Assembly: GCA_964455975.1 (NCBI GenBank)
Contig: CAYVYP010000001.1
Coordinates: forward strand, 592-64,591
Origin: an uncultured Lachnospiraceae bacterium
Lineage (GTDB): Bacteria; Bacillota; Clostridia; TANB77; CAG-508
DNA length: 64,000 bases
Reading direction: 5' to 3'
Position 1 is the first letter of the stretch; every line of letters begins with the position of its first letter. This document shows, one piece after another, positions 14,601 through 44,785 of the stretch. The position numbers were made by a program, and so were the translations under genes. Below the pieces are notes generated by a model. It was not told where the DNA came from and did not search any database. It saw only the letters and a list, made by a program, of their open reading frames with translations.

Positions 14601-16211
14601 TATTGTTCTTCCTGTAGAATCATTAATTGTATCTACAACCCATCCATAAGTTTTATTTATTGCATTATCTGGTAAAAATTCTAATTCTGCTGGTAAATGA
14701 TCTGTTATTTCATTTACATAACCATCTACTATTCCTTCATTATATACTCTTATTGTATAAACAACTACATCATCTGTATCTACTACAATTGGATTTTTAG
14801 TATGATTATATATTGCAGTTGTTACTAAATTTCCATTTACTATTTTATTTAAATTTGTAACATCTACTTGTGGCTCTCTTGATGGAGATACTGTTACATT
14901 ATTTATTGTTGTTATAAACTTTCTTAATGCAAAATCTGGAGATGGTTTTGTTATATCCACTGGTTCTTCTAAAGATAAACTCTTATCTTCTCTATCTATT
15001 ATAGCTAATGGTTGTGTTGTTGTAAACTGCGTATCTTGACTTGATGCTATTAAATTAATTGTACTATTTCCTTTATAATTAGCTGTTACAGAAACCTTTA
15101 CCTTTGAAATTGTATCATTTGTTAAAGGTATTTGAATATAAAAATTTTCTCCTATTAATTGTTCTATTGTTTTTGTTGTTTGAGCTTTGTTACTATCTAA
15201 CATTGTATAGTTTGTAATATTTGCTCCATTTTGATCTTTAATTGTTGCTGCAAAATTTGTATATGCATTGTCATTTTCTTTTGTAATTTTAAATGGTCCT
15301 ATTACATAATTGCTACCACTTATTTCACTTGTAGCATTATTGTTAATTGATAATGGTGCTGATATAGTATTTTGAGTATAACTTGTTTTAGTTGCTGCTG
15401 TATTTATTAAATATCCATATAAAGCTCCTGCATATTGTAAACGATAATCTGCATCATCTTGTGTTTTATTACTTGTTGTTTGTGTTGTTCCTAAAGAAGT
15501 ATACTCAGATTGATCTATGCTTGTATATTTTCCAGGTGTACGCTCTGTTTTTGTTATATATGGTGAAATAGTATTTCCTACATCAAACCCTGTACCATCA
15601 TCCATATTTGTAAAATGCCAAATTGCAGCTTGTTGAATAACCTCTATATCATCATCTGTTAGAAGTGTTTTTGCATCTTCGGCATCCATCTCGTTTGAAT
15701 CATAATTTTCTGCAGCTTGTAATAAAGCTAATTTATCTGCTACTTTATTAGCATTTTTAGGAAGATATATATTATCTAATAACCATAAAAGTGATCCATA
15801 ATTATTAGTAGGTATTAAACTTATATATTTACTTAAATATGAATCTGTTTTATCCCCATTCATATCTCTAAAAATATCATATTGTATTTCTGCTAAATTA
15901 TTTCCTTCAACTGAAAAACCTGGTCCACCTTTAATACAGTATATGCTATTACTCCAGTCTATATTTGTATTATTTGCTTCTCCTGTTAATGGATAAGATA
16001 CAACTTTAAATACAGTTTTTGAACCAGACATATATCCATATCCAGACTCTCTAATTTGAACTATTCCTAATTTTAATGGAGTTGTTCTTGTTAAACTCAT
16101 ACCTGCAATTTCTTCTTTTGTTAATGCATATGATGAATTAATTATTCCTCCAAAAATTAAACTTAAAATTAGCATAAAAATAATTGCTAAAAATACTTTT
16201 TTAGTTTTCAT
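11673..16211 (-). CDS. Giant cell-surface protein with five tandem DUF11-type (TIGR01451-like) repeat modules and an acidic sorting-signal-like C-terminus.
   Basis: Signal peptide MKTKKVFLAIIFMLILSLIFGGIINSSYA. Five repeats of about 190 aa (FDLSLRKFITKVND…REPQVD…TTATY.H.K.P…GD.V.YT.R.YNEG…GY..E..D..P..LEF…DRDSTP.N). C-terminus VPGEDDIDDAPVLLGVSTG, then a TM segment and KKYVIG. Confidence 0.75.
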   Translation of the reverse strand: MKTKKVFLAIIFMLILSLIFGGIINSSYALTKEEIAGMSLTRTTPLKLGIVQIRESGYGYMSGSKTVFKVVSYPLTGEANNTNIDWSNSIYCIKGGPGFSVEGNNLAEIQYDIFRDMNGDKTDSYLSKYISLIPTNNYGSLLWLLDNIYLPKNANKVADKLALLQAAENYDSNEMDAEDAKTLLTDDDIEVIQQAAIWHFTNMDDGTGFDVGNTISPYITKTERTPGKYTSIDQSEYTSLGTTQTTSNKTQDDADYRLQYAGALYGYLINTAATKTSYTQNTISAPLSINNNATSEISGSNYVIGPFKITKENDNAYTNFAATIKDQNGANITNYTMLDSNKAQTTKTIEQLIGENFYIQIPLTNDTISKVKVSVTANYKGNSTINLIASSQDTQFTTTQPLAIIDREDKSLSLEEPVDITKPSPDFALRKFITTINNVTVSPSREPQVDVTNLNKIVNGNLVTTAIYNHTKNPIVVDTDDVVVYTIRVYNEGIVDGYVNEITDHLPAELEFLPDNAINKTYGWVVDTINDSTGRTIKTGYLSFANNANTTSENKISAFNGTKLDYRDVQIACKVKLTDTSIKITNIADITEEANSSGTKIDKDRDSTPKNVVLPSDTNLPGYKDNEINNSYVPGQEDDDDFEKLRVKEFDLSLRKFITKVNDKDLKDASGNYIREPQVDTSKLNTIENGNRITTATYNHSKTPVGVQIGDIVVYTLRIYNEGETDGYAKEITDHLPAELEFIVNSTINTKYRWLLDGNDDTLRTIRTDYLSKNQDDKNLLKAYDGTKLDYKDIQVECKVKSTAVIDKKITNIADITNDSDKNGNEVIDRDSTPKNVVLPSDENLPNYKDNEINKSYVPGQEDDDDFEKLVIKQFDLSLRKFITKVNDMVVSPSREPQVDVTNLNKTVDGKVVTTAKYTHPKDPVPVATGDIVTYTIRMYNEGEIDGYVQELKDDIPEGLEFLPDNALNKEYRWVMYDKDGKVTKDVTKAVEIRTDYLSKEQEKISKDNLILAYDETTMKTLSYKDVKVNFKVVEPDTSTNIITNTAEISKDADDNGNDVTDRDSTPDNNIPTEDDIDVDHVKLTYFDLALRKFITEVEGKVVSPSREPVVDVSKINTVDKDGKLITTATYTHPKDPIDVVTGNIVTYTIRVYNEGTRSGYAKQIKDDIPEGLEFLPDNELNKEYRWVMYDEEGNVTEDLTKAVDIRTDYLSKEQEKTSGANLINAFDNTKGLSTVEPLNPDYKDVKVNFKVTEPETSDRILINTAQISNDSDENGKDVIDRDSTPDNDKPGEDDIDIDKVKVKYFDLSLKKWVTQAIVTENGKTTVQETGHTGDENPEPIVKVELYRKNINKVTVKFRYKIKVTNEGEIAGYAKEVTDYVPKGLKFVQADNPDWYIRDNDESKIATKKLENTLLQPGESATVEVLLTWVNGNDNMGVMTNIAEISKDYNDSHTPDIDSTPDNKVPGEDDIDDAPVLLGVSTGSVPMYLGLVGAVLITITGGVILIKKYVIG

Positions 16212-16515: not shown

Positions 16516-17331
16516 TTATTTTACTTCTCTTGCTTTTACAACAACTCTTGATTTACTATCATCAGTACATGTTATTAATGTTATTTCTTTTTTTCCATCT
16601 GTTAATTGAGTTGTAAAAGATCTATCTTGTGTATCTGGATCAATAGTAAATTTATCATATACTGCATACTGTATTGTTCTTCCTTTACTTACATCTTTTA
16701 TTTCTATTATATCACCATTTACTAATGTTGGAACTTTACTAAAAAATCTAGTATTTCTATAATTATGCCCTACTATACAAAAGTTTCCCACTTCATTTAG
16801 TCCTGAACCCCAGAATTCACAAGGAGAATTTTTAAGTAAATTTTCTGTTTCTTCAAGTGATTTTGTTTGTCCCGATAATATTGGATAATTTACATTAATT
16901 TTAGGTATAGTTATTGTTCCTATTGTTGTATATTTATACCCTGCTGAAGATGTTTGAACCTCAAGTGGTACATCCTTTTCTTTTTCTAGTAATTCATCTA
17001 CTTTTATTTCTTCTACCTGAACTTGCTGGTTATATTCTAATGCTACAACTATAACATCATTATCAGATACTTTTATTGTTGTATCATCTTTTATTTTTTC
17101 TGGCTCTTTAAACTCTATTTCAGATAAAATTTCCTTTGAAACCTCTTCTGCCTTGTTCATATCATATTGTGCATATATGTAATAAGAAAATAAAGAAAGC
17201 ATTAAAAGAATAGAAAAAACAAACTCTATTTTATACAGTTTTCTTTTTCTCTTCAGTTCAGGTGTAACATATAACTTTTCAGTAATTAGAATCTGATTCA
17301 TACCCTTTCCCTTTCTTACATATCTATACAA
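16516..17331 (-). CDS. Sortase (transpeptidase) with SrtA-like active-site region.
   Basis: N-terminal membrane anchor. Catalytic signature …GHNYRNTRFF…(His)…KKEITLITCTDDSKSRVVVKAREV (TLITC Cys motif; compare S. aureus SrtA LTLITCDDY…). Embedded among the surface-protein genes. Confidence 0.8.
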   Translation of the reverse strand: MYRYVRKGKGMNQILITEKLYVTPELKRKRKLYKIEFVFSILLMLSLFSYYIYAQYDMNKAEEVSKEILSEIEFKEPEKIKDDTTIKVSDNDVIVVALEYNQQVQVEEIKVDELLEKEKDVPLEVQTSSAGYKYTTIGTITIPKINVNYPILSGQTKSLEETENLLKNSPCEFWGSGLNEVGNFCIVGHNYRNTRFFSKVPTLVNGDIIEIKDVSKGRTIQYAVYDKFTIDPDTQDRSFTTQLTDGKKEITLITCTDDSKSRVVVKAREVK

Positions 17332-17359: not shown

Positions 17360-18145
17360 TCAAATATTTTTTGGAGATTTCATTTTGTATTTTTCAGCTA
17401 TATATAAACCATTTATAAATTTTTTATATTCTTTTATATTAGTTCTAATTTCAGCATATTTCATTAAACGCTTTAAGTCAATATCATATTTTTCAAAAAT
17501 ATTTTCATATATTGTTTGTAATTCTTTTCCTTGATATTGAATATATAATTTGTCAACATATAAATCAATCATTATTTTTTCTATTGATACATATGTTTTG
17601 TTTTCTTCTTTGAGTAATGGTGATTTTATATGTAATGGTTTAATAATTATTAAATTTTCAGTATTTATATATAAATTTCTATTATGATTAAAAATATCCT
17701 GTGTTATTATTGTATATTTTCTAAAACATTTCATTTTCAATAAATTAACAATTAAATCTAATGCTATTTTTTCTGTTTCAATAATTATATAATTACTCAT
17801 TACATAATGCAAAGTAAATTCATTTAAAATGTTTGTATTCCAAACTATAAAATTAATTTCTGGGTATTCTTTTTTTATTAATTTATATATTACATTCTCT
17901 TCATTATTTACTTTATACTTGTAAATTAGCTTTGTAACTATGATATACTTGTTTTTTGCAATTTCTTTTATTTTATTTTCACTTTTTAATATTCCAATAA
18001 TATTTCTAATTGTTTTTTCGTTTTCAATATTATTTACTTGTTTAGCTATAATTTTGATGTCATTCTTTTCAAAGCTTTTATCTTCGTATTCTTCTTTTAA
18101 TTTTTCTAATATTTCAATATATCTCATTTTGCACCTCACAGGCAT
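17360..18145 (-). CDS. Hypothetical cytoplasmic protein of 261 aa, lysine/isoleucine-rich, with a possible N-terminal wHTH-like segment. Function unknown; a candidate locus regulator.
   Basis: ORF only; no TM or signal peptide. N-terminus MRYIEILEKLKEEY… resembles wHTH regulators, but this is weak. Confidence 0.3.
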   Translation of the reverse strand: MPVRCKMRYIEILEKLKEEYEDKSFEKNDIKIIAKQVNNIENEKTIRNIIGILKSENKIKEIAKNKYIIVTKLIYKYKVNNEENVIYKLIKKEYPEINFIVWNTNILNEFTLHYVMSNYIIIETEKIALDLIVNLLKMKCFRKYTIITQDIFNHNRNLYINTENLIIIKPLHIKSPLLKEENKTYVSIEKIMIDLYVDKLYIQYQGKELQTIYENIFEKYDIDLKRLMKYAEIRTNIKEYKKFINGLYIAEKYKMKSPKNI

Positions 18146-18289: not shown

Positions 18290-21200
18290 TTATTTTTTAG
18301 AATCTAATACAAATTTTTTAATTATTACTATACCAACTATTAATATAATTGCTCCTATAAATCCTATTACGTAATAAATTGGTGTTTCTCCTGTAGGTGG
18401 CATAATACTTATATTTTTTGCCCAGTCTGTATCTGGTTCTTCTGGTTTAACATCTGGATCTGATAAATTTGGATTTTGATTTCCTGGTACAGATGAATAA
18501 TCTCTTCTACCTGTTGTAGTTGAATATTGTAATATTTCTGCTATATTACCATAAATCATTTCTTCAGAATCATTTCCTGGTGATAATACTTTTGACAATG
18601 TTAATTTTAATTCTTTTGTACTATATGGGTCCATATTATCAGTATTTAAACTTTCATTTACTATCATACTATTATTATTTAATTTTATACTTCCATTAAT
18701 TAAATTATCTTTATCAAATGTATTAGTATTTTTTTGTAAATCTTGATATGTTTTACTTCCATCTTCCAAAGAATTTTTATTTAATGAATATAAGTTCCAT
18801 CCCGTATTATCTTCTTTTCTGAAAGTAATATTGTTATCTACATAGTCCAATACCTTATTAATTCTTAATATTGATAATTCAGTACTTGCATCATGTTTTC
18901 CAGTATAATAGGTACTTCCCAAATATGTTCCTATACTATCTTTTCCTTGGATTTCAGGAATTTCTTCATATTTTTCATTATTAGGATTATTAATATTATT
19001 CAAAAATTCTCGTTTGTCACCTGCAACAGTATTTATTTCACTATTATTTGTTATTGTAATTTTATAATCTATTATAATAGTTGAACCCTGCATTAATTCT
19101 TTATCTAAATATATTAATGTTGTTCTATTTAAAGTATCTCTTATATGCTCTTTTTTCAAGTTTCCATTATTAACATCTGGCATTAATCCAGCATTTGAAT
19201 CAACTTGCGTTTTTCCATTTGCTAATATTAATCTTAATCTAGTTATTTCTTTATTAAGAACTATATTTGTTTTTGGTCTTTCTTCTAACCCCAAATCAAT
19301 ATTATTTACACTATATGCTCTACTGTCTGTTTCTTTAAGTTCATTTGTATTATATTCAATTCTTATAGAAATTTTAGCAGTATCAGCATACATCCAAGTT
19401 TCTTTCTCAAGTTCTGCAATTAGTTTTTTATCATCTTCAGTTTTGCCCGGATTTCTATCTGGTGATGCTAAAACACTTCCATTATAATTTGATATTGTAC
19501 TTGAATATTTAATTTGTCTTAATCTTTGTGCTTCATTATCTTTTGCATCAGATATTTTTTCATTATTATTAAATTTGGCTAAATCAAACCATTCTTCTTT
19601 TAATGAATCTTTTCCAGTTTGATATGCTGTTGATTTGTAATCTTGTCCATTATAAGATTTCTCATTAGATCCACCATTTTCAATAGTTAATACTGTTTTA
19701 TCTGTATCACCATATTTAAATCTTACAACAAAGTTTCCTGCAACAAATTGGCTAAATTCATATTTACCTTTGTCTGCTGAAATGTTTAAGAAACTTCTAA
19801 ATGGACTATTAGTATCATTTTTTATTTCTTCTTCTGCTGTATCATTTAAATTTCCATTATTATCTACATATTTATATGTATTATCTCCGGTTAACATTTC
19901 TCTCCAAATATATTCATATTCTTTTCCGTCTATTTGTACTAATTCTACTAATTGAATTGTAACACCATTAATTCTTGTTTTTTCAGTGTCTTTTAATTCT
20001 CCATCTCCTACAATTTGCCCAGATTCTAAAGTATTTGTTCTTGAATCCTCCCAAACAATACCATTAATTTTTCTATCTTCTTCTGAATCTTCTCTTAATT
20101 TAATAGTAATTATTGGTGCTGCAGAAGTATCTGTTTCATAGTTTTTATCTCCTGGTGTGTAATTATATGGAGCTGAATTACAATCTATCTTTCCTAAATA
20201 ATTATTATTTGTATAATTTCCATTTGAATCTTTATTATTATCATAGTATGTAGAATAAGATTTTACTTCTGTATATTGTTCTTTATTTCCTCTTATTACT
20301 GAATTTTTTAAGTTCTCATAATCTTGTTTATTTACTTCAAATGTTACAGATATTATTGCATATTCTCCTGGTTTCATTCTTACATCTTTTAGGCTAGTAG
20401 TAGTCATTACATTATAACCATTAACTTTAGTATTTGAAGTGTTCCAAACAATAGCATGTTCTGTGTTAGATGATTCTGTATTTAATCTATATGTAGAAGC
20501 TTTTGCAACTGTCTTGCTTTCCGTTTCTTGTGTAGTTGCATTTTTATAAATTTCTAATTGTTTTGCCTTATCTACTAATGTATATGTTTCATCATAGTAA
20601 TTTACAATTTCATTTACTCCTACATAGTTTTGTTCATCTACAGATTTATTTGTTACTCTTATTTTATATGTAACAAATACTTTTAATTCTTCATCTGTTA
20701 CTTTGCTACTATAAATTTTATCAATTACCTCTTCATTATTATTTAAATTATTAGTATTTTTATAATCATCTATTCTATAATTATAATCTGATTTATATAA
20801 AGCAGTATTATATGTTATTTTAGAACTATCAGCTGGAGATAATATTGAATTTTGTATATCTATTTCTAGTCCTTCCATATCTGTTCTTCTATTGTATTTA
20901 TAAGTTGTTTCATTTTTGTTTATTGTTACAACAGATTTTTCAACATCTTCTCTTATATCTAAATCTACTACTGACCTTTTTACTAGTCCTAAATTTATAT
21001 GCTCTAAATATGGATATACTTTATTATAAGTAATTCCTGCAACAGTTCTATCTATATTTGAAATATGAATACTACTATCAATAGGTAATTTATCAATTCC
21101 AGCTGCCTGTGTTGTAGCAGAAATTTTATATTTATCTAAAGTTCTTCCATCTTTATCTGTTGTAATTAATGAAGCATAATTTTGATTTGTCTCATTATTT

Positions 21201-23581
21201 TCTGTAATAGAATACTCTAAATCTGTCTTAGAATTATTATTACTATATGCTTCTCCTGTATTTTTATCTGTTATTTTATCATTTGTTATTGTTGCAAATT
21301 TATTATTAAAAGAAATTCTCCACTCTGCTTTTTCCATTGCTTTTGAATTATTATAATATTTAGTAGTGTTTCTTTCAGAACTATTATTCATATATTCGGA
21401 AATATTATTTTTTGATGAACCTTCAACAGCAAATTGTTTATTTTCGGCTAAAGATTGGTATACAATACCATTATATTTAAATTCTATATAATATTTTTGT
21501 GCAATAGGAATATCTGTTAAACTCCAATTTCCATTATTATCAGTTTCTGTTGTTTTTACAACAGTTCCATCTAACTTATGTAATATAACTTCAACATATT
21601 TTACCGGCTTATCAGTTCCTGTGTTTATTCCATTTGCTTCACTTTCTTTTCCTTCTGCTAAATTATCTTCCCAAACTTTACCACCCATATTCATGGTAAG
21701 TGGAATTGGATTTTTAAAGGTAATACCTATTTCGTGATATATTTCTCTAATCCATGCTGAATTTAATGAAAATAATCCTTGTGAATTAGCACCAGAAAAT
21801 ATTCCTGCTTTTGCTACAACTGTAGAACCTCTTCCTTGTATATGTGATCCAGCAGGTATATTGTACGGATCTCTATTATATTGACTTCCATTTTTAGCAT
21901 ATGCTAAAAGTCCACATCCCATACCATGTGCTGGGCAATGTCCTTCATCTCCAATTACTTCATGTCTATTAAGAGCTCCTTCTTCTCTTCCGCATGTATC
22001 ACAACGTCCATCTCCAACTATGGTTCCTTTAATATCTACATACACATGTCCTTTTGATGCTGTAGTATGAACTCTTCCACCACATGTATCACAAAATCCA
22101 TTTCCAGTTTCTCCACCACTATTATCTACAAATTGATGTTGCTCATCTTCTCCAGTGCTATCATGTACTCTATAATTATGATACCAAGTATCTCCATCTA
22201 AATATAATGTAGAATTGTTCTTATTACAAACCGGTGATTCAGAGCAATACGAATATGGTCCAAAATACAATAATCCATTTGCTGATCTTTTTACAATTAA
22301 TTTTATATCATTGTATTGTCCTGCAAGTTCATTCATAGAACCCCCATATTCTTGCAAACTATAATATGTAAAAGAAAGATTTGTTAATGTTGTAAAACTT
22401 TCATTTCCTGAATATGGTATTTTTATATAAAATTCTTCTCCAGAACTTGGATATAAATTATTTTGTACAGGATTATTACATATAAATGAATACCCTTTTA
22501 CTTCTCCTGCATCTCCACTTAATTTTGAACCTACAATTGCTCCAAATAATACTCTACTTCCATTTGCACCAGCTTGTCTTAATGTTGAATCTTGATTTTG
22601 CCTTTGTGCCATAGTACTGTTTGCTTTAACATTATATATGTCTTGATTATATGTTATTCTAAATGGTCCCACTAAATATGAATTATCTACATCTGAATAT
22701 GATACAGAAACCTCATTTGATGCTGCATATCCATTTTGTGGTGGATAATTACTATTATCTGTAATTGTATTTCCATTATTATTAATATTTTTTATATGAT
22801 TATTAAATGCTTTAGCTTCTTCAAACAAATTACTTCCTTCTGCTGCACTAGTTGCAGAATTAGATCCACTTGCTGAAAATCCACCTTCATATGCATTTTG
22901 ATACATCCAATATGCATATTGTACTTTATCTGCCCAATTATGTGAATAAGAAACTACTCCTGTTTTAGTAGAATTATGTGAAAGTATATATGCTTGCATT
23001 GAATTTAATAATGTTACACCTGTTGTTTTATAAAACGAAATTGTTTTAATTCTATCAAGATATGATTCTCCAGTTGTTGGATCTATAAATTCTTCATTAT
23101 ATAGCTTACTGTTATCTATCGCATTATTTAAATTTTCAAGTGTGCTTAAAGCAGGGCTCCATTGTATTGGCATTCTTTCTGGTGAAACATATAATTCCTT
23201 TATTTCTTCACCATCCTGTATAACTCTATTATTAAATGTTACTTTATTTATACCTAATATATCTGCTACTTTACCACTTATAAATACCGTCATATCACTA
23301 ATTCCAGTTGGACTTGCATAAATATCTTCATCATATGAATGTGATGGTGCCCCTGTATTTTCAAATCCAATAAAAGTTCCATGTTGTCTACAAAATAATC
23401 CATTTGTTTTTTGTAAATCATCATATGATATTAATCCACCAGTAATTCCTGATGTAGTTCCACTCCAATATGTTTTTCCATCAGTTTGACTTGCAAATAC
23501 TTGTCCAATATTAATTATACTTATCATTAATAATGTTACAAAAATTATTATCAGATATTTTATTATTTTACTCTTTTTCAA
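18290..23581 (-). CDS. Giant wall-anchored adhesin with a putative N-terminal thioester (TQXA-type) domain, a Cys/His-rich insert, multiple CnaB/SdrD-B-like (prealbumin-fold) domains and a C-terminal MPPTGE sorting signal.
   Basis: TTG start 4 nt after the stop of the upstream gene. Signal peptide; FCRQHGT (candidate thioester Cys) and …SMQAYILSH (TQxA-like Gln). CnaB-like segments (VKYVEVILHKLDGTVVKTTETDNNGNWSLTDIPIAQKYYIEFKYNGIVYQ; VELVQIDGKEYEYIWREMLTGDNTYKYVDNNG). C-terminus SIMPPTGETPIYYVIGFIGAIILIVGIVIIKK. Confidence 0.7.
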   Translation of the reverse strand: MKKSKIIKYLIIIFVTLLMISIINIGQVFASQTDGKTYWSGTTSGITGGLISYDDLQKTNGLFCRQHGTFIGFENTGAPSHSYDEDIYASPTGISDMTVFISGKVADILGINKVTFNNRVIQDGEEIKELYVSPERMPIQWSPALSTLENLNNAIDNSKLYNEEFIDPTTGESYLDRIKTISFYKTTGVTLLNSMQAYILSHNSTKTGVVSYSHNWADKVQYAYWMYQNAYEGGFSASGSNSATSAAEGSNLFEEAKAFNNHIKNINNNGNTITDNSNYPPQNGYAASNEVSVSYSDVDNSYLVGPFRITYNQDIYNVKANSTMAQRQNQDSTLRQAGANGSRVLFGAIVGSKLSGDAGEVKGYSFICNNPVQNNLYPSSGEEFYIKIPYSGNESFTTLTNLSFTYYSLQEYGGSMNELAGQYNDIKLIVKRSANGLLYFGPYSYCSESPVCNKNNSTLYLDGDTWYHNYRVHDSTGEDEQHQFVDNSGGETGNGFCDTCGGRVHTTASKGHVYVDIKGTIVGDGRCDTCGREEGALNRHEVIGDEGHCPAHGMGCGLLAYAKNGSQYNRDPYNIPAGSHIQGRGSTVVAKAGIFSGANSQGLFSLNSAWIREIYHEIGITFKNPIPLTMNMGGKVWEDNLAEGKESEANGINTGTDKPVKYVEVILHKLDGTVVKTTETDNNGNWSLTDIPIAQKYYIEFKYNGIVYQSLAENKQFAVEGSSKNNISEYMNNSSERNTTKYYNNSKAMEKAEWRISFNNKFATITNDKITDKNTGEAYSNNNSKTDLEYSITENNETNQNYASLITTDKDGRTLDKYKISATTQAAGIDKLPIDSSIHISNIDRTVAGITYNKVYPYLEHINLGLVKRSVVDLDIREDVEKSVVTINKNETTYKYNRRTDMEGLEIDIQNSILSPADSSKITYNTALYKSDYNYRIDDYKNTNNLNNNEEVIDKIYSSKVTDEELKVFVTYKIRVTNKSVDEQNYVGVNEIVNYYDETYTLVDKAKQLEIYKNATTQETESKTVAKASTYRLNTESSNTEHAIVWNTSNTKVNGYNVMTTTSLKDVRMKPGEYAIISVTFEVNKQDYENLKNSVIRGNKEQYTEVKSYSTYYDNNKDSNGNYTNNNYLGKIDCNSAPYNYTPGDKNYETDTSAAPIITIKLREDSEEDRKINGIVWEDSRTNTLESGQIVGDGELKDTEKTRINGVTIQLVELVQIDGKEYEYIWREMLTGDNTYKYVDNNGNLNDTAEEEIKNDTNSPFRSFLNISADKGKYEFSQFVAGNFVVRFKYGDTDKTVLTIENGGSNEKSYNGQDYKSTAYQTGKDSLKEEWFDLAKFNNNEKISDAKDNEAQRLRQIKYSSTISNYNGSVLASPDRNPGKTEDDKKLIAELEKETWMYADTAKISIRIEYNTNELKETDSRAYSVNNIDLGLEERPKTNIVLNKEITRLRLILANGKTQVDSNAGLMPDVNNGNLKKEHIRDTLNRTTLIYLDKELMQGSTIIIDYKITITNNSEINTVAGDKREFLNNINNPNNEKYEEIPEIQGKDSIGTYLGSTYYTGKHDASTELSILRINKVLDYVDNNITFRKEDNTGWNLYSLNKNSLEDGSKTYQDLQKNTNTFDKDNLINGSIKLNNNSMIVNESLNTDNMDPYSTKELKLTLSKVLSPGNDSEEMIYGNIAEILQYSTTTGRRDYSSVPGNQNPNLSDPDVKPEEPDTDWAKNISIMPPTGETPIYYVIGFIGAIILIVGIVIIKKFVLDSKK

Positions 23582-23585
23582 GCTA

Positions 23586-26500
23586 TTACACCTCCTTACT
23601 TAAAATTTTCTTTTTTATTACATATATTCCGCTTCCAATAATAATTATTAAGACAATTGCTATTGTTGTATATATTATTATTGCTCCTGTTTTTATTGAT
23701 ATTAAAACATCTGCACTGCTTATATCATCTTCTCCTTGAACTTTGTTTCCTGCAATAGAATCATTATCTTTTAAACCTTGTTCATTATAACTTTCAGCAA
23801 TTTCTGCTATATTATTTGTTATTCCTAAATTTTCATCTGTCATTTTTTTAGTTAAAATCAATTTAACTTCTCTACCCTCTCCTGGCTTTAATTCATCATT
23901 TGCAAGTTCTGTATTATATAAGTTTCCAGATTTATCTTGGTACCAATTTGTATTTAATTCTGAACTAAATTTTAAATCGTTTGGCATATAATCCACTATT
24001 TTTTTAGCATATCCTGCTATTTGCCCTTCATTTTGAACTACTATTGTATATTCAATTATTACTGTAGACTTTGCTACTTGCTTTCCTGTTATATCTGCTT
24101 TTGCAAGTTTAACATTTTCATAATTATATACTTTAGTTCCTTCTCCATTTTGAACTGTAATTTTACTTACATATTTATCTAGTTTTAAATCAAATTTAGG
24201 GCTTTCATATAAACCTATATCTATATTAGATTTACTTGTTCTTACTATTTTAATTATATCTGTTACTGCTGCTTGTCTTAAATTTCCATCTTCATTAATT
24301 GTTGTTGAAATAGCATCTGAATTATTATTTTCTGTAGCTTCATTTGACTGATATTTTGTTACATTGTATTTATTGGCATCATAATCAAATAATACTAAAT
24401 AACTTCCTTGTTCTAATTCTGTAAAACTATATGTTCCATTATTTTCTGTTTTTGTTGTTTTTATTATATTGTTATTTTGTGTTGAAAGTAATTTAACTGT
24501 AATTCCTTCTAATACATTTTCTGTATCTTCTCTTATTCCATTTTTATTTTCATCTAACCACGCTGTACCTTCTATTTTATATTTTACAGTTTGTCCTCCA
24601 TTATTTTCGCTTTCTCCATTATTTTCTGGATTTGGTTGAATAATATGAGTTATTTTATCTGTTGTAAATTCTACGTCTGTTCCATATATAGTCATATGAT
24701 TTGTTACTGCTAATTCATCAATATCATTTGCCAATTCTTGTGCTTTAGCAGTAAGTATTAAAGTAAATGTTTCTCCAACATTTAATACTAAATCTGTATT
24801 ATATTCACTTAAATTTGATTGAATAGATTCTGAATAATTTTCATCTGTTCCATATTTTACTTTTACCGTTTTTAATCCATCTGGAAGGATATCTTTTATT
24901 TTTACATTAGAATCCATCCAACTTCCTATGTTTTTTAATATTAATTTATATTCTATTTCTTGTCCTTCTACAACATATTTAGTTGTTGGGTTTGCCTCTA
25001 TACTTGCAACTATATGTGGTGCACCAACTTTTATTCCATATGATAATGCTTCAACTTTTTCATTATTATTTACACTAGCATTTGCTGTTATTGGTATTAT
25101 CTTCTCATATATTCCATTTTGTAATTTATCTATTTTTACAGTTACTTCTAGAATAATTTCCTCATCCTTTTTTAAAGTATTTATTAAACTATTTAAAGTT
25201 TTTTCATTTTCTTTATATGTTGCATTTGTTGTATCATTTTCTCTTGTAGGATAAAAACTAATTTTTGAAGATTGATAAATTAATCCTTCTGGTACAATAT
25301 TATTTATAACTACATTTTCTAAATCTTTTCCTTCAATATTTTTAACATATATTTTATATGTATATTCTGAATCTACTTTCAATTTACAATTTTCCCATGA
25401 ACTAATATCAATTTTTATTTGTGCTGGTATTACAATATTATCAACTTTATTTGAATTAACTTCTTTACTTAAATCTTTTGCTAATACTGTTGCAGTATTT
25501 GAAAGTATAAGTTCTGTTAGTTTTGTTTTTGTTCCATCTGCTTTATAATAGTAATAGTCGTCTCCTTCTTTAAACATTCCTTTAACTAGATATCTTCCAA
25601 CTTTTACTTCAAATTCAACAGTTTTAGTTTCTCCTTTTTTTAATGTACCAATAGCCCATTCTAAATTTGGCTTAGAAAAATTCGTTTTATATCCAATTGG
25701 TCCATTTTCTATATTTTCATTATAATATACATATGTACATCCTGTTGGTATTGTATTTTTTACTACTACATTTTCTACTGTATCTTTTCCTGAATTTGTT
25801 ACTTTAATTGTATATTTTATAATTTCATTTTCTTTTACAGTATTTCCATTTCCTGCTGATGAAGATAATTCTAACCCAAGTATTGGTCCTGCTCCTGTTG
25901 TTAATCCTAATTTATTTGGGTATGATGTTTTTGTTTCTGCTTCTAACACATAATTTGTTTGTGTTGTTTGATATAAATATTGTTCATGTTCTAAATTTGC
26001 TGGTATTATATAGTTATATTCAAAATTACTTTCATCTCCTATAGCAAAATCTTCTGTAAATATAATTAAATATGATTTAATTGCAGAATAATTACTAGGA
26101 TTAGCTGTCCAACCATTTGATGTTAAAGCTATATCTTTTGTTGCTTCTTTATTTTCTGAATAATATACAGTGTAATTTTTTGTACTGGTTACATTAATTG
26201 CTCCTGTTAAAATTGTATCCATTGTTGTTCCTAAATTTTTACCAGTTTCTAAATCTTTATTATTAGTAAAACCTATTCTTCCTAAAACTACTACATTATT
26301 TGCTACTTTTGTTTCATTATTCATTAATGTTACTTTGTATTTAGATGTTTTAGCTTCTGTATATATTTCTAACTTTCCTGTTCCGTCACCTGTAAGTGAG
26401 TTTATAGTCTTTCCAGTATTTTCAAAGTTTGAAAGTTCTACTCCCGTTATAAATCCTGTTGGTGCTGCATATGTTAACTCTTGTGTTGCAACTCCTATTA

Positions 26501-28691
26501 TTTCTATACTTCTTGCTTTTGCATTTTGTAGTTCCATTTTATTTTCATAACTTGTTGCATTTTCATTTGTATAATATAAATTTATATTATCTTGTTTTGC
26601 TGGTGTTGTTATTTTAACTTTTATATCTGTTACTAATACAATATTTGTACCATTTGTTATTTTTAATTCATTAAATATATTTTGTATTCCTTCTAATGAT
26701 AATTTTATATATATTTTTCCATTTTCAATATATTTATTTGCTCCTACTATTTTTAAACCTTCATTAAATAAAATATTTGCTGATTTTATATTAATATCTT
26801 CAATAGCTTCTGGTAATTCTATTGTAAATGTTGGGTTTATATAAAAATCTGAATATGATTTATCATTATTAAATTCAATTTTTAATTCTACATCTTGGTT
26901 TAATACCATTGTAGATAAATTTGTATTACTTAATTTTATAGTAGCATTTGTTTTTGTTTCTTCTAAATTAATACTTTTAGTTTTTGCTGTATTTTCTGCT
27001 ATTTTATATTCATCCACATTTGTTAATTTTATACTAGCTTTACTTCCAACTTCTAATATTTTAAATTTTTGTATCTCCGCTTTTGAATATATAACATCAG
27101 TTCTTATTTGCTTTGTATTATTTATTTCTAAAATACCTTCTTTTTGTGGTTTTGATGTTTCAATTATTATATTTGAAATATTTTTTCCTTCATAATTAAT
27201 TACAATATTTCCATTTTTATCTACTTCAAAATTTTTATCTATCGTAAATAATAGTTCATTATTTGTATTTAAAATTTTTATTGTTCCATCTTCTCCAAAT
27301 AAATTTAGAAAATCAACTTTATTTATTTGTGTTTTTTCAAAATATGTAATATTTTGATTATTTATAATAGTTTTATTTTTATTTTCATTTTCATCCACAA
27401 AATAATCTTCTAAACTTTCTACTTTTATACTATCTAATACATTTGCATATCCAATATTTAATTTATAATTCACATCATAAGTTGTCTCCCTTTTATTTGC
27501 TTCATCTTGTATTTGATAATTTGAATACATATTTCTTTTTGATATTGAATTGTTTGTTACTTCCACATCATATGATAAAATATCACTAATATTTTCTTTT
27601 AATTCTACTTGATTTATAACTTTGTTTTCTATTAATTTTGTGCTATCATTACTATATATATTTAGGCTAACTTTTGCATTTAAATCTATTTTATCTATTT
27701 CTTGCCCATAACTTTCTTTTCCATATACATATGTAATTTCATAAATATCGCTAGAATTTTCTTCCATTGCTATATTTATAATATTGTTACTATCTGCTTT
27801 ATTTTCTACATTTATTTCTAACTTTCCTGTTTCTTTGTTATATGTAAAATTCTCGTTTGTAAAATTTTCTGCTAATTTACTATTTGTTAAATTTGTTTCA
27901 ACTGCTACTACATTCACATAATTTGGTAATGTATTATTTATTTTTGGTACATCTATTTCAATTTTTGTTTTTGCTACTGGAATACTATTTTTATCTAATG
28001 ACACTGTTACTTTATTCTGTAATAATTTTTCGTTTTCTCCATTTGCTGTATATTTAACATATTTTGATATTTGGCTATTAATATTTATGTTTGCATCTAT
28101 ATTCCAATTTAATTTTAAATTTATTTGTTTTTCTATTTTTACTTCTTTTCCATTATTGTCTATATATGTTCCTTCTAAAATTATTTTATTTGTTTTACTT
28201 AAATTACTTAAATTAAATTCTTTATCTATATTTAATTCTATCTTACTTTCAACTGTAAAATCTGCATTGGCATTTATTTGTTTTAAAATAATTGTATTAT
28301 TGTCTTTATCTAAACTTTCTGTATTATCTACTCCTTGAAGAAATTCACTTGCAACAAAATTACTACTATTTTTAGCATTTTCATCTCTAAATAGTATTTT
28401 TGCATCTTTTAGATATCCTGCACTTTGTACAGAGATTCTTGTATATACTTTATTTTCTTCATTTTTATTTAAAGTTGCTTCATGAACATTTTTTTCATTA
28501 ACTTTAAAATATGCGTCAAATTCAATATTTGAGCTTTGTGTTTTACTATCTTGTCCATCTTGTGCATCTAATGCTAGTACTTCTCCTAGTCCTGCACCTA
28601 TTATTGCAATATTACTAGATAGTATTGCAATAGTTAAATATGTTGCAACAATCTTTGACAATATTTTAAGTCTTTTTGAAAGCATAGACAA
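23586..28691 (-). CDS. Giant surface protein with many Ig-like/Big domains, a CnaB-like domain and a terminal DUF11 domain, ending in an acidic sorting-signal-like C-terminus.
   Basis: Signal peptide MSMLSKRLKILSKIVATYLTIAILSSNIAIIGAGLGEVLALDAQ. CnaB-like segment (ITVKLLSTQNNNIIKTTKTENNGTYSFTELEQGSYLVLFDYDANKYNV). DUF11-like segment (KSTVIIEYTIVVQNEGQIAGYAKKIVDYMPNDLKF). C-terminus NKVQGEDDISSADVLISIKTG plus TM plus KKKILSKEV. Confidence 0.7.
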   Translation of the reverse strand: MSMLSKRLKILSKIVATYLTIAILSSNIAIIGAGLGEVLALDAQDGQDSKTQSSNIEFDAYFKVNEKNVHEATLNKNEENKVYTRISVQSAGYLKDAKILFRDENAKNSSNFVASEFLQGVDNTESLDKDNNTIILKQINANADFTVESKIELNIDKEFNLSNLSKTNKIILEGTYIDNNGKEVKIEKQINLKLNWNIDANININSQISKYVKYTANGENEKLLQNKVTVSLDKNSIPVAKTKIEIDVPKINNTLPNYVNVVAVETNLTNSKLAENFTNENFTYNKETGKLEINVENKADSNNIINIAMEENSSDIYEITYVYGKESYGQEIDKIDLNAKVSLNIYSNDSTKLIENKVINQVELKENISDILSYDVEVTNNSISKRNMYSNYQIQDEANKRETTYDVNYKLNIGYANVLDSIKVESLEDYFVDENENKNKTIINNQNITYFEKTQINKVDFLNLFGEDGTIKILNTNNELLFTIDKNFEVDKNGNIVINYEGKNISNIIIETSKPQKEGILEINNTKQIRTDVIYSKAEIQKFKILEVGSKASIKLTNVDEYKIAENTAKTKSINLEETKTNATIKLSNTNLSTMVLNQDVELKIEFNNDKSYSDFYINPTFTIELPEAIEDINIKSANILFNEGLKIVGANKYIENGKIYIKLSLEGIQNIFNELKITNGTNIVLVTDIKVKITTPAKQDNINLYYTNENATSYENKMELQNAKARSIEIIGVATQELTYAAPTGFITGVELSNFENTGKTINSLTGDGTGKLEIYTEAKTSKYKVTLMNNETKVANNVVVLGRIGFTNNKDLETGKNLGTTMDTILTGAINVTSTKNYTVYYSENKEATKDIALTSNGWTANPSNYSAIKSYLIIFTEDFAIGDESNFEYNYIIPANLEHEQYLYQTTQTNYVLEAETKTSYPNKLGLTTGAGPILGLELSSSAGNGNTVKENEIIKYTIKVTNSGKDTVENVVVKNTIPTGCTYVYYNENIENGPIGYKTNFSKPNLEWAIGTLKKGETKTVEFEVKVGRYLVKGMFKEGDDYYYYKADGTKTKLTELILSNTATVLAKDLSKEVNSNKVDNIVIPAQIKIDISSWENCKLKVDSEYTYKIYVKNIEGKDLENVVINNIVPEGLIYQSSKISFYPTRENDTTNATYKENEKTLNSLINTLKKDEEIILEVTVKIDKLQNGIYEKIIPITANASVNNNEKVEALSYGIKVGAPHIVASIEANPTTKYVVEGQEIEYKLILKNIGSWMDSNVKIKDILPDGLKTVKVKYGTDENYSESIQSNLSEYNTDLVLNVGETFTLILTAKAQELANDIDELAVTNHMTIYGTDVEFTTDKITHIIQPNPENNGESENNGGQTVKYKIEGTAWLDENKNGIREDTENVLEGITVKLLSTQNNNIIKTTKTENNGTYSFTELEQGSYLVLFDYDANKYNVTKYQSNEATENNNSDAISTTINEDGNLRQAAVTDIIKIVRTSKSNIDIGLYESPKFDLKLDKYVSKITVQNGEGTKVYNYENVKLAKADITGKQVAKSTVIIEYTIVVQNEGQIAGYAKKIVDYMPNDLKFSSELNTNWYQDKSGNLYNTELANDELKPGEGREVKLILTKKMTDENLGITNNIAEIAESYNEQGLKDNDSIAGNKVQGEDDISSADVLISIKTGAIIIYTTIAIVLIIIIGSGIYVIKKKILSKEV

Positions 28692-40639: not shown

Positions 40640-43600
40640 TTATAAAACCTTTTTCTTTATTATAACTATTCCAAATATTAGTATTACTGCTGATATTGAA
40701 ATTATTACATAATAAATTGGTTGTTCTCCTAATGGAGGTAATATTGATACCATTTCTGCATTATCACTATCTTGTTCTCTAGCTTTTTCTTCTGGATTTT
40801 GATTTCCTACTAAAGAATTGTATGTTACTGTTCCATTACTTGATGTTGTTTTTAATACTTCAATAATATTATCATATGATAAGTCTCCATTATCATTTTC
40901 TGTACTTATAGTTTTTGATAATATTAAATTAGTATTTGCCTTTTGTCCTGGTTCTAATTTAGTATTTAACTTTTCTGTTGTTATTATTGTATTAATATCT
41001 GCTAAATTAATGTTACTACTTATTAAATTTTCTTTGTTTTGTAAATTTTCTTTTGAAGAAATAGTCCAATTTTCATTATCATCTTGTCTATATATTATGC
41101 TGTTATCTACATAATCTGCTAGCATATTTACTTGAAGTGTAGCTTTAGAGTCATTTTTATTAACTATTCCTTTATAATAGAAACTGTTACTTAAATAATC
41201 AACTTCTCCAGTATTTTCTACTGTAATTTTATATGTTATTTCTATTCTTGCTCCATGCATTAACTCTTTATCCATTATAATATTTACAAATCCATTTTCA
41301 GTAGAAGTTGGTTTTGACCATTGAACATTTGACATTGATTCGTTTGTATCTATTTCAACCTTATCGTTTGCTAAATACACTTTAACTCTTTCAACATCTT
41401 TAGAAACCTTCATATTAGCTTCTGGTCTTTTTACTAATCCTAAGTTTATATTATTTAAAATATAATCTGTGTTTTGTCCATAACTTGTTGCGTTTCTATT
41501 ATATTCTAATTCTACATTTATAGTTCCTGTTTCAGCTCTCATCCAAGCTTTTTCTATTAATTCATTTATTAATGCTTCATCTGTACCATTATATGCATTT
41601 GCTACCATTGCTAAATGATTATTAACTGTTGCAAAATTATTTGTTACTTCTTTTCTTCTAGATAAAATATCTTTTGCATCTGAAATATTTGTTTTTGTGT
41701 CAGCTGCTGAAATGTCATATGTATATGTTCTTGTTTCATTTTGATCATTATATGTATTTAGACCTTCTTGATATATTGTTGACTTATATTTTAATCCGTT
41801 ATATTCAATATTTTCTTTTTTATTTCCATATAAAAATCTTACTGTATAATCACCTGGAATATAATTTTCAAATGAATAATATCCATTAACATTTGTTGAT
41901 GTTTCATTCCAAATACGTTCTGTTCCATCTTTTCTTAATTCTACTAATTGTACTGTTATGTCTGATACTTTTTTCTCTTTTTCTTCAATTATACCATTTC
42001 CTATATTTGCTCCTGCAACAGATAAATTTCTATCTTCTTCCCATGTTGTACCATTTACTTTTCTTGTAATAATATTTCCTTGTTCATCTCTATAAAATAT
42101 TATTTTTGTATTTGGTGCTTTATCTGTATCATCTTCAAATTTAGTTATATCACTTGATGTTATATTTCCTGGTTTTGAATTATCATCTATAACTCCTGCT
42201 ATTTCTCCATTTTGTTCATATGATTTATATCCATTTATTTCAACTATATTTTCTTTTCCTGTACCTATTTCGCCTTTTCCATTTTCATCTATTAAAACAG
42301 CTCCATTTTGGTCTTTGTTTACTCTAAATGTTATGTACATATATTCTTTTTCACCTGCTGATAATTTTGTATTTTCTACTCCTGTTAGATATATCTTATT
42401 ATATCCACTTATTGTATATTCAGAGTCTTGTCCATATTTACTTGAATTAGAGCTTTGAATATTTCCAGTTTTATCACCTGATGAATTTCCTACATAAGAC
42501 ATATCTTGTACAAATGTATAATCTTCATCATAATAATCTACAACTTCTGTAATTGCTGCTTTTTTTATTTGTGAACTATTTCTCATACTTATTTTATATG
42601 TAACATATACATTAAGCTTATCTTCTTCTGATACTTCTTTTCCATCATATATTCCATAATTATAGTCTGATTTATATATTGTTCTATCATATGAATTAGT
42701 GTAATATTGTTGATCTTGTAATCTAACTTCTACCTTCCAATAACTATCATCTATTAATTGTCTTCTATTATACTCATATGTATGAGTTTTTCCATTAATT
42801 ACTACTGTTGCTTTATATACGTCTTTTCTTATTGCTACATCAAAAATATCTCTTCTATCTAATCCTAAATTTACAAATCTTTGTCCATTATATAATGCTG
42901 TATATCCATCTATAGCTTCTGTACTTATGACAAATTTTGTTGGAATTGGATATAAATCTATTTTATCTTTTCCATTACTTCCTGTATATGCACCAATTTT
43001 TGCATCTTCTATATATTGTAATTTACTTTTTGTTTCATAATTATTACTTTGTTCTAATATTTTTGCATATATATCATTTTTTAAGTCTGGATATTTATTA
43101 TTTGCATTTATATATTGCTTTGTTTTTTCTAATATTGTTTGTTTTATTTTTGCAATTTCAGATTCTGTATATGCTATATTATATTCTAATCCATATCCTA
43201 AAGAATTTGAAGATTTATAATTTTTTGGTGTAGAACCAATTTCTGCAAATATATTATTAAAATTTGTTCTATTATTTGTTCCTTCTGTTGCTTTTGAATT
43301 AAGTGCCCAGGCATTAGAATTATACTCGTTTCCACCAACCATATATTGTACATTTTTATATGTTTGTCCATTATATATAAATTCTACATAATATTTTTTC
43401 ATTGGGTCTAATCCTTTAAACTCATATAAACCATTTGCGTTTGTAATTGTTGGATTTGTTCTTATTTCTACTTGTGTGCTACTTGGATTTTCATCTTTAT
43501 TTGAACAAATTGCTGCTAAATTTCCATTTTGCTCATATAATCTTATTTCTACGCCTTCTAGTGGAGCATCTACTGCATTAGCCCCTATATCTATTATTCC

Positions 43601-44785
43601 ATTTTTAATACTTTCTTTTCCACTTGGTTTATCTACAAATACTATACCAGTTAAAATCATTGTTAATGGCTTATATTGATTTATTTCTAAACTTGCTTCA
43701 CCAATTAATCTTTGACTAACAACTCCTGCTGTTGATACTATTTCTTTTACTATTGGTGTTATTAATTGTTGTGCATTATATGTTCCTACTTTTATGGCTT
43801 CATACCAATAATATGTATGTCTTTCTAATTCATATTTTTTTGTTATTGAATTCCATACTTGTGTAGAGGCATCTGATGATTTTAATTGCCACTCTAATAT
43901 GTTTCCTGAACCATCATATGTATCATATGTTCCTGTAGAATCTTGTATATATTTAAAGTCTACATGTAATTTTACGCCTTTTGCAGTTTGTGCATCTACA
44001 TTTTTAAATTTTATATAAAAATTTGCTCCTGATGAAGGATTATTTCCTGTTTTTGAATCTGCTATTATTTCAATATTTTCTATTTTATTTCCATTTTGAT
44101 CTATCAAATACATTTTATCTATCCAATCAAGATATACTTCTTGACCATTATATGCTGATGCAAAATGTTCATTTGGATATGAAATATTATATGGTCCTAC
44201 CATATATGTACCTTCTTGTGTATCAACTGCTACTTTTAATTTACTTTCATCTGTATTATTTGAAATTAAATTTGAATATCCACCACTTTTTTGAAGTTTA
44301 TTATAAAAATCTTGATATTGTAATCCTTGTTTATACATTCCAAGTATTGTTTGTCCTGATATTCCTTCATAATCTGCTCCTGGAACTATTGACATACCAT
44401 GGTTTAATTCACTTAACCAAATAACATATTGAATAAGTTTTTTATCATTTGATGCTTCACTTGTTAAAACATATGATAACCATTTAGGTAATTCATTTGT
44501 TCCTGTTTTAGTATATACAGTTGTTTCATTTATTTTTTCTGATGTTGGTGCTGCTCCAACATAATCTGTCCATCCTCCATATGTATTTGCTTGTTTAACA
44601 CTATTCATATGTATAGGAGTTCCCTTTTGTATACAATAAAAATCTTGTACTTGTCCATCTACTGTTTGCACAAAAGGTGTCCAGATATCTGGTACATCAA
44701 AAGATGTAGCAAAACAATTGCTACTTCCAAATATAATTCCTACTGCCATTAATATAAAAAGTAATAATATGAATTTCTTTTTCAT
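40640..44785 (-). CDS. Giant wall-anchored adhesin, paralogue of 18290..23581: putative thioester domain, CnaB-like domains and an LPPLGE sorting signal.
   Basis: Signal peptide; YCIQKGT (candidate thioester Cys) and …LIQYVIWL (TQxAIW-like). CnaB segments (GVEIRLYEQNGNLAAI…; VQLVELRKDGTERIWNETSTNVNGYYSFENYIPGDYTVRF). C-terminus VSILPPLGEQPIYYVIISISAVILIFGIVIIKKKVL. Confidence 0.7.
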   Translation of the reverse strand: MKKKFILLLFILMAVGIIFGSSNCFATSFDVPDIWTPFVQTVDGQVQDFYCIQKGTPIHMNSVKQANTYGGWTDYVGAAPTSEKINETTVYTKTGTNELPKWLSYVLTSEASNDKKLIQYVIWLSELNHGMSIVPGADYEGISGQTILGMYKQGLQYQDFYNKLQKSGGYSNLISNNTDESKLKVAVDTQEGTYMVGPYNISYPNEHFASAYNGQEVYLDWIDKMYLIDQNGNKIENIEIIADSKTGNNPSSGANFYIKFKNVDAQTAKGVKLHVDFKYIQDSTGTYDTYDGSGNILEWQLKSSDASTQVWNSITKKYELERHTYYWYEAIKVGTYNAQQLITPIVKEIVSTAGVVSQRLIGEASLEINQYKPLTMILTGIVFVDKPSGKESIKNGIIDIGANAVDAPLEGVEIRLYEQNGNLAAICSNKDENPSSTQVEIRTNPTITNANGLYEFKGLDPMKKYYVEFIYNGQTYKNVQYMVGGNEYNSNAWALNSKATEGTNNRTNFNNIFAEIGSTPKNYKSSNSLGYGLEYNIAYTESEIAKIKQTILEKTKQYINANNKYPDLKNDIYAKILEQSNNYETKSKLQYIEDAKIGAYTGSNGKDKIDLYPIPTKFVISTEAIDGYTALYNGQRFVNLGLDRRDIFDVAIRKDVYKATVVINGKTHTYEYNRRQLIDDSYWKVEVRLQDQQYYTNSYDRTIYKSDYNYGIYDGKEVSEEDKLNVYVTYKISMRNSSQIKKAAITEVVDYYDEDYTFVQDMSYVGNSSGDKTGNIQSSNSSKYGQDSEYTISGYNKIYLTGVENTKLSAGEKEYMYITFRVNKDQNGAVLIDENGKGEIGTGKENIVEINGYKSYEQNGEIAGVIDDNSKPGNITSSDITKFEDDTDKAPNTKIIFYRDEQGNIITRKVNGTTWEEDRNLSVAGANIGNGIIEEKEKKVSDITVQLVELRKDGTERIWNETSTNVNGYYSFENYIPGDYTVRFLYGNKKENIEYNGLKYKSTIYQEGLNTYNDQNETRTYTYDISAADTKTNISDAKDILSRRKEVTNNFATVNNHLAMVANAYNGTDEALINELIEKAWMRAETGTINVELEYNRNATSYGQNTDYILNNINLGLVKRPEANMKVSKDVERVKVYLANDKVEIDTNESMSNVQWSKPTSTENGFVNIIMDKELMHGARIEITYKITVENTGEVDYLSNSFYYKGIVNKNDSKATLQVNMLADYVDNSIIYRQDDNENWTISSKENLQNKENLISSNINLADINTIITTEKLNTKLEPGQKANTNLILSKTISTENDNGDLSYDNIIEVLKTTSSNGTVTYNSLVGNQNPEEKAREQDSDNAEMVSILPPLGEQPIYYVIISISAVILIFGIVIIKKKVL

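Follow-up and report, generated by a model that had tools for sequence, protein, structure and literature searches.

The question raised by this locus is whether two very large surface proteins of an uncultured bacterium carry, at their N termini, domains that form an internal thioester between a Cys and a Gln. Thioester adhesins bind bacteria to their targets through covalent bonds, and protein engineers have also taken them up as tools; to our knowledge, those that have been characterized come almost all from cultured pathogens. The two proteins, here called W1 (positions 18290-23581, 1763 residues) and W2 (40640-44785, 1381 residues), are encoded in the 64,000-nucleotide stretch of DNA analyzed in this work (the window), as are two further proteins that bear on the question, W3 (23586-28691) and W4 (11673-16211). 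All four genes lie on the minus strand, as do the other features given with coordinates below. We conclude, with a probability of about 0.6, that the N-terminal region of W1 and W2 is a strongly diverged thioester domain (TED) of the class II type. The case for this reading is that profile comparison and colinear motifs tie W1 and W2 to W4, that Pfam and Foldseek tie W4 to class II TEDs, and that the key residues are conserved across the family. The initial annotation of the window had also proposed thioester domains in W1 and W2. The domain stands as the best reading of the region, given the motif conservation and the profile link to W4, but the Gln that had been assigned to the bond was the wrong one.

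W1 and W2 Are Paralogous, Stalked Surface Proteins

Aligned by BLASTP, W1 and W2 are 30% identical across 1212 columns (E 7e-111), a similarity far beyond chance, and the two are true paralogues. This similarity is carried by the stalk and the C terminus, as the N-terminal regions alone align at E 0.004. Both proteins begin with a typical signal peptide, and their common architecture consists of this Sec signal peptide, an N-terminal adhesive region of ~350-600 residues, a stalk of immunoglobulin (Ig) domains that are SdrD_B (CnaB-like) or CLIPPER-like, and a C terminus that holds the protein at the surface. The Pfam SdrD_B model (PF17210, cutoff 29.7 bits) recognizes two stretches per protein. 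The first SdrD_B domain of W1 lies at residues 631-711 (21449..21691, 33.5 bits), and the best-scoring one of W2 at residues 929-987 (41825..42001, 49.4 bits). Each stalk has two more domains with a weak similarity to the final CLIPPER/DUF11-like domain of W3 and W4 (~1e-3 to 1e-4 with a database of four sequences).

These data bear out the initial annotation on several counts: W1 and W2 are paralogous, their stalks contain SdrD-B-like domains above the Pfam cutoff, and their description as adhesin-like surface proteins is supported by secretion, C-terminal anchoring, a fibrillar form, and the SdrD_B stalks. The sequence strings quoted in it are also all present, i.e. FCRQHGT at residues 63-69 of W1, YCIQKGT at residues 50-56 of W2, FYIKI at residue 384 of W1, and FYIKF at residue 256 of W2. 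The remaining two, LIQYVIWL (residues 117-124 of W2) and SMQAYIL (residues 194-200 of W1), exist as well but had been listed in swapped order.

The Family Conserves the Cys, Gln, and Trp Residues of Thioester Domains

In TEDs the Cys that forms the bond belongs to a [YFL]CΦζ motif located on a strand, and its Gln partner is part of a weak ΦQζΦΦ motif on a β-strand close to the end of the domain (PMC4450167, PMC6194298). A third motif, TQxxΦW on the central helix α2, supplies a Gln and a Trp that are dispensable and make hydrogen bonds to the Cys backbone; the Cys and the bond-forming Gln are the only universally conserved residues of functional TEDs (PMC4450167, PMC6194298). In class II TEDs, helix 3 leads into an inserted seven-stranded β-sandwich, and an extended hairpin then brings the Gln back to the head (PMC6194298).

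The W1/W2 family follows the published order, with the Cys on a strand, QxxΦW on a helix, and a Gln on a late strand, as judged from a structure model of W2 described below. Conservation was counted in an alignment of 30 complete family N-terminal regions, where the Cys and the Trp of QxxΦW are present in 30/30, the Gln of QxxΦW in 26/30, and the Gln of the late hairpin in 28/30. These four are the only near-invariant polar residues among sequences that are otherwise 20-35% identical. The hydrophobic and Gly/Pro positions of the β-sandwich (GPFxI…FYIKF) are conserved too, and the conserved columns comprise C, Q, W, G, P, F, and Y together with one Asp within the β-sandwich. The Thr of TQxxΦW is not conserved in the family. 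The hairpin Gln stands ~25-50 residues ahead of the linker to the first SdrD_B domain, and W2 has just two Cys residues in its mature 1355 residues. The Cys, Gln, and Trp motifs are not chance pairs.

The candidate thioester Cys is Cys-64 in W1 (LFCRQ, 23390..23392), which occupies the column conserved in all 30 sequences, and Cys-51 in W2 (FYCIQ, 44633..44635), which ends strand 19-25 of the W2 model. The initial annotation had paired this Cys with a Gln in a TQxAIW-like context. That Gln cannot be taken as the reactive partner, because in TEDs the Gln and Trp of TQxxΦW merely hydrogen-bond the Cys backbone and form no bond (PMC4450167, PMC6194298); the residue conserved in 28 of the 30 sequences is a different Gln, on the hairpin. 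The match drawn between SMQAYIL of W1 and LIQYVIW of W2 fails as well. Instead, IQYVIW of W2 aligns with KVQYAYW of W1, on which BLASTP, the 30-sequence alignment, and a leave-one-out family hidden Markov model (HMM) agree, and SMQAYIL falls on a different conserved helix with the consensus HQDAAYILA. The TQxxΦW-type helix motif, which is not bond-forming, accordingly comprises Gln-221 in W1 (KVQYAYW, 22919..22921) and Gln-119 in W2 (LIQYVIW, 44429..44431), the latter on model helix 89-98.

The candidate bond-forming residue is Gln-601 in W1 (ANSQGLFSL, of ΦQζΦΦ type, 21779..21781), which lies in the column conserved in 28/30 and which the family HMM aligns with "kktQkliav". Its counterpart in W2 is Gln-339 (YNAQQLI, 43769..43771), on model strand 291-319, which aligns with the Gln of TTQPLAII in W4. 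From these positions we infer the candidate thioester pairs Cys-51–Gln-339 in W2 and Cys-64–Gln-601 in W1. The leave-one-out HMM matches W1 at residues 40-479 (78 bits) and 594-686, and it brings the motifs of the Cys, of QxxΦW, and of the hairpin Gln into alignment. On this and the family alignment, the candidate class II-type TED of W1 spans residues 31-626, including a Cys/His-rich insert (21704..23491).

W4 Links the Family to Class II Thioester Domains

W4 (1512 residues) is a class II TED protein. Its TED, at residues 29-430 (14922-16127), scores 25 bits against the Pfam TED model (cutoff 22), and a Foldseek search with its AlphaFold2 (AF2) model retrieves EfmTIE86-TED (6FWY, E 5.8e-9) and BaTIE (6FWV, E 8.4e-8), with a probability of 1.00 over ~390 columns. 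The protein contains YCIKGG, QQAAIW, and a candidate Gln in TTQPLAII, and its five DUF11/CLIPPER repeats are followed by GVSTG and a transmembrane (TM) anchor. Nine homologues of W4 were found, none of them with a precomputed Pfam TED annotation.

The 30-sequence family profile was compared with the W4 family by hhalign. The local alignment (97.3%, E 2e-11) extends over the β-sandwich, which is homologous in the two families. In the global alignment (98.3%, E 1.5e-13) the Cys motif, QxxΦW, GPF, FYIK, and the hairpin Gln are all in register, the W2/W4 pairs being FYCIQKG/IYCIKGG, IQYVIW/QQAAIW, GPY/GPF, FYIKF/FYIQI, and NAQ339QLI/TTQPLAII.

Residues 27-385 of W2 were modeled with AF2 from an 18-sequence alignment, and model numbering is that of W2 minus 26 (Gln-339 is Q313 of the model). 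The model has a mean pLDDT (predicted local distance difference test) of 83 and a pTM (predicted template modeling score) of 0.76. It begins with strands 2-3, 12-16, 19-25 (with the Cys at its end), 42-47, and 64-72, continues with helices 75-81, 89-98 (bearing the Gln and Trp), and 118-141, and then places seven strands within residues 158-235. These are followed by strand 244-257, a very long hairpin (260-286/291-319) with Q313, a low-confidence loop, and strand 333-347. The order of elements in the model is that of class II TEDs (PMC6194298) with one extra hairpin. From the model and hhalign, the candidate class II-type TED of W2 spans residues 27-372 (43670..44707) and would combine a compact head, a three-helix bundle, a seven-stranded β-sandwich, and long β-hairpins.

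A TED of this kind would consist of a small β-barrel with [YF]C, a three-helix bundle with QxxΦW, the seven-stranded β-sandwich after helix 3, and a returning β-hairpin with the partner Gln. By analogy with SfbI, Cpa, and BaTIE, folding would bring together Cys-51 and Gln-339 in W2, and Cys-64 and Gln-601 in W1, and an internal thioester would form autocatalytically with the loss of NH3. This bond would next be attacked by a nucleophile, as a rule a Lys amine, of a surface ligand of host or microbial origin, and the resulting adhesion would be covalent.

Evidence against a Thioester and Alternative Readings

A number of results weigh against this interpretation. The TED models that the initial annotation had named as a check, Pfam TED (PF08341) and NCBIfam TQXA, match neither W1 nor W2 at E<=1, nor does Pfam at E<=10, and Pfam TED matched none of the 26 other family N termini (17 searched at E<=1 and nine at E<=10). 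Sequence and profile searches of the PDB with W1, W2, and two alignment profiles were empty, and a word-indexed homologue search with the W2 N terminus alone found nothing. A Foldseek search of the W2 model against the PDB gave no TED among the top 50 matches, the best of which had E 0.049, and returned unrelated or spurious Fab and channel matches; this null result is meaningful because the same search succeeds for W4. The significance of the hhalign comparison comes almost wholly from the β-sandwich. For the head only, the agreement is at the level of motifs, with a score of 19-21 and P 0.02-0.03, equalled in 1 of 100 column shuffles; the best local matches of this head-only comparison coincide exactly with the two TED motifs, that of the Cys and QxxΦW. 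In W1, FCRQ has an Arg where a hydrophobic residue is expected, as in the YYCR[KN] subgroup. Finally, the Gln of the W2 model lies within a long strand that leads into a low-confidence loop, whereas in the W4 model it directly follows the hairpin tip, and the geometry may therefore differ.

The alternative that best survives is a head that descends from a class II TED but forms no thioester, so that the ligand is bound non-covalently and the Cys, Gln, and Trp are purely structural. The strong reduction of the head, which lies beyond the reach of all TED HMMs and of Foldseek, and the different placement of the Gln in the W2 and W4 models would be explained in this way. Furthermore, the assignment of the Gln by motif is weak, because class II TEDs are often without a clear ΦQζΦΦ motif (PMC4450167). 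Yet a Cys kept in 30/30 and a hairpin Gln in 28/30 sequences at 20-35% identity are the signature of functional TEDs, and a lone structural Cys in an extracellular domain would be unusual. We regard this alternative as unlikely.

A second proposal concerns assembly and is compatible with a TED. W1, together with W3 and perhaps W4, would be a subunit of a sortase-polymerized, pilus-like fiber, with W1 as the TED-bearing tip, like Cpa in Streptococcus pyogenes pili. The genes for W3, W1, a DUF6577 protein, a divergent sortase, and W4 follow one another on one strand in this order, an operon-like cluster with 4 nucleotides between W3 and W1, and a W3-like gene lies directly upstream of a family member in seven independent loci. 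The sortase (16516..17331; TLITC motif, Pfam Sortase E 3.4e-22) is encoded ~1 kb downstream of W1. Its best NCBIfam model is that of the pilin-polymerizing class C, but the score of 58.9 bits is far below the cutoff of 160, and no sortase lies within 10 kb of the family homologues, or of their pairs with W3-like genes, in other loci. In addition, proteins of ~1700 residues are far larger than known pilins, and W2 is solitary, with neither a partner gene nor a sortase close by. A pilus-like assembly is therefore improbable.

The idea that the conserved Cys, placed at a β-strand end with helices after it, is the nucleophile of an extracellular enzyme resembling a cysteine protease or transglutaminase was rejected as very improbable, because no His is conserved among the 30 aligned family N termini; nor does an Asp or Asn occupy a position suited to a dyad or triad, searches of Pfam, NCBIfam, and the PDB matched no family of proteases or transglutaminases, and the region is homologous to the TED region of W4.

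Cell-surface Anchoring of W1 and W2

The C terminus reads NISIMPPTGETPIYYVI... in W1 and VSILPPLGEQPIYYVI... in W2, and in each case runs on into a hydrophobic helix and a KK tail. The anchor of W1 (18293..18412) is made up of IMPPTGE, the helix, and the tail KKFVLDSKK, and that of W2 (40643..40750) of ILPPLGE, the helix, and KKKVL. The hydrophobic helix and basic tail of a sorting signal, as had been proposed, are present, but the pentapeptides are not canonical LPXTG. The MPPTG of W1 fits LPXTG loosely, and the LPPLG of W2 has no Thr, with a Leu where the scissile Thr would be; LPPFG is the motif of most family members. In a manual count of 37 full-length members, the pentapeptide [LIV]PP[F/T]G contains PPFG in ~23 and PPTG in 11. 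We found no literature on LPPFG, IPPFG, or LPXFG signals. W1 and W2 may be attached to the surface by a wall link made by an unusual sortase, by polymerization, or by a plain membrane anchor. The LPPFG-type anchor may prove the more original lead from this locus, as a signal without a scissile Thr raises the question of which enzyme processes it.

A Cys/His-rich Insert in the N-terminal Domain

Residues 446-556 of W1 (21914..22246) form an insert with eight Cys residues (CDTCGG…CDTCGR…HCPAHGMGCG) and weak matches to Pfam GFA and DUF7351. The alignment places it at the tip of the extra β-hairpin of the N-terminal domain, and many relatives, though not W2, have similar inserts there that are rich in CxxC and His. 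The W1-type insert may form a knob, metal-binding or held by disulfides, on a domain outside the cell. Several relatives have an additional CxxC element, located after the Cys motif and ahead of the QxxΦW helix.

Genomic Setting

The G+C content of the window is ~25% throughout, and it contains chromosomal housekeeping and sporulation genes (SpoIIE, MreD, MinC, penicillin-binding proteins, and KsgA). The host is an uncultured, low-G+C, probably spore-forming Clostridia bacterium of the gut.

W1 starts at a TTG codon, 7 nucleotides past a GGAGGTG ribosome-binding site and 4 nucleotides past the stop codon of W3. W3 itself (1701 residues) is a surface protein of DUF11/CLIPPER and SdrD_B domains that is translationally coupled to W1 and is without the N-terminal Cys motif. 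It was rejected as a TED protein; it has only two Cys residues, both inside DUF11 repeats. A W3-like protein of ~1700 residues with the same domain types and ~33% identity is encoded directly upstream of the W1/W2-family gene in seven metagenomic loci (L001-L006 and L008). This arrangement, together with the 4-nucleotide spacing in the window, suggests that W3 and W1 are a functional pair. The DUF6577 protein between W1 and the sortase (17360..18145, Pfam E 1.7e-41) has no counterpart gene beside the family homologues in other loci, and no signal peptide or TM segment was noticed on reading its sequence (no prediction was made).

W2 lies ~17 kb from the W1 cluster with MinC, a penicillin-binding protein, and MreD as its neighbors, in a position syntenic with that of its homologue in locus L003. 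Downstream of it are encoded a small FxLYD-domain membrane protein (39988-40497) and a 564-residue protein (38281-39975) that combines Big_12 and LamG-like domains with a TM segment at its N terminus; the W2 locus may thus encode additional surface components.

Two other genes of the window appear interrupted. A giant gene for a GH2 glycosidase/MucBP surface protein (394-8580) is apparently divided into three open reading frames (6853-8580, 1167-6575, and 394-1074); as the coding sequence carries on in another frame at both junctions, the breaks are read as frameshifts, due to pseudogenization or assembly errors. SpoIIE is found as two open reading frames, of which 36179-37768 encodes the N-terminal membrane part (529 residues) and 35275-36072, with a GTG start, the PP2C part (265 residues). 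In the homologous locus L001 it is a single open reading frame of 809 residues, and the split in the window is possibly a frameshift or an assembly error.

Distribution and Significance of the Family

The relatives of W1 and W2 that were found all come from genomes of uncultured Clostridia, assembled from gut samples of animals and humans. Searches returned 26 clusters among 5.8 billion sequences and 29 representatives among 1.84 billion. With so few members in public data, the family has little ecological weight. Earlier work has described divergent TED clusters that Pfam does not detect (PMC9210967), and W1 and W2 are therefore best seen as a rare, divergent variant of a known adhesin family and not as a new system.

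If a thioester does form, the mechanism would reach into rare, uncultured gut Clostridia, and current HMMs and Foldseek would be overlooking whole TED subfamilies. The family would also offer an unusually compact head together with a new insertion site, the β-arm or the Cys/His knob. A bolder proposal, which we consider doubtful, is that the W1/W2 family is a third TED class derived from class II. It would be defined by a minimal head, an inserted β-arm bearing, in the majority of members, a Cys/His-rich knob that may bind metal, an obligate W3-like partner, and an LPPFG-type signal in which Phe takes the place of the scissile Thr, implying a sortase or other enzyme of unknown specificity.

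Comparison with Known Systems

The stalks of W1 and W2 resemble those of SdrD-type B-domain proteins (PF17210) in the two SdrD_B domains that each protein carries above the Pfam cutoff. By eye, D/N/G-rich stretches such as VWEDNLAEGKESEANGI also resemble calcium-binding loops. They differ in that the SdrD_B domains alternate with CLIPPER-like domains invisible to Pfam, and the N-terminal ligand-binding region is not an A-domain of the MSCRAMM type (microbial surface component recognizing adhesive matrix molecules).

The class I TED adhesins (SfbI, FbaB, Cpa, and CpTIE/Cpe0147 of Clostridium perfringens) share with W1 and W2 the proposed Cys-Gln thioester that reacts with a ligand amine, and the logic of TIE (thioester, isopeptide, and ester domain) proteins, in which a reactive head is carried on a cross-linked Ig-domain stalk. 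Unlike the W1/W2 family, they are without the β-sandwich insertion and have canonical LPXTG signals, and their ligands are known (fibrinogen Aα for SfbI and FbaB).

W4 shares the organism and the locus. Its N-terminal architecture is colinear with that of the W1/W2 family (hhalign 97-98%), and both end in a C-terminal hydrophobic anchor. However, W4 is recognized by Pfam TED and by comparison with solved class II TEDs, SdrD_B is absent from its stalk of five DUF11/CLIPPER repeats, GVSTG is its anchor motif, and it has neither the extra hairpin nor the Cys-rich insert.

The closest characterized systems are the class II TEDs of BaTIE (6FWV), EfmTIE86 (6FWY), and SaTIE (6FX6) (Miller, Banfield & Schwarz-Linek 2018). 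The W1/W2 family departs from them in several respects: neither W1 nor W2 is matched by their HMMs, nor the W2 model by Foldseek; the head of W2 is shorter, with 68 residues from the Cys to the QxxΦW motif; an extra hairpin of ~45-60 residues, often with a Cys/His-rich knob, precedes the Gln strand; the Thr of TQxxΦW is not conserved; and the anchor is LPP[F/T/L]G, usually with Phe at the fourth position, rather than LPXTG. What the two have in common is the placement of the domain at the N terminus of a secreted, anchored, and stalked protein, the [YFL]C strand, the QxxΦW helix, and the three-helix bundle, and, as the W2 model and hhalign suggest, a seven-stranded β-sandwich after helix 3 that is followed by an extended hairpin with a conserved Gln.

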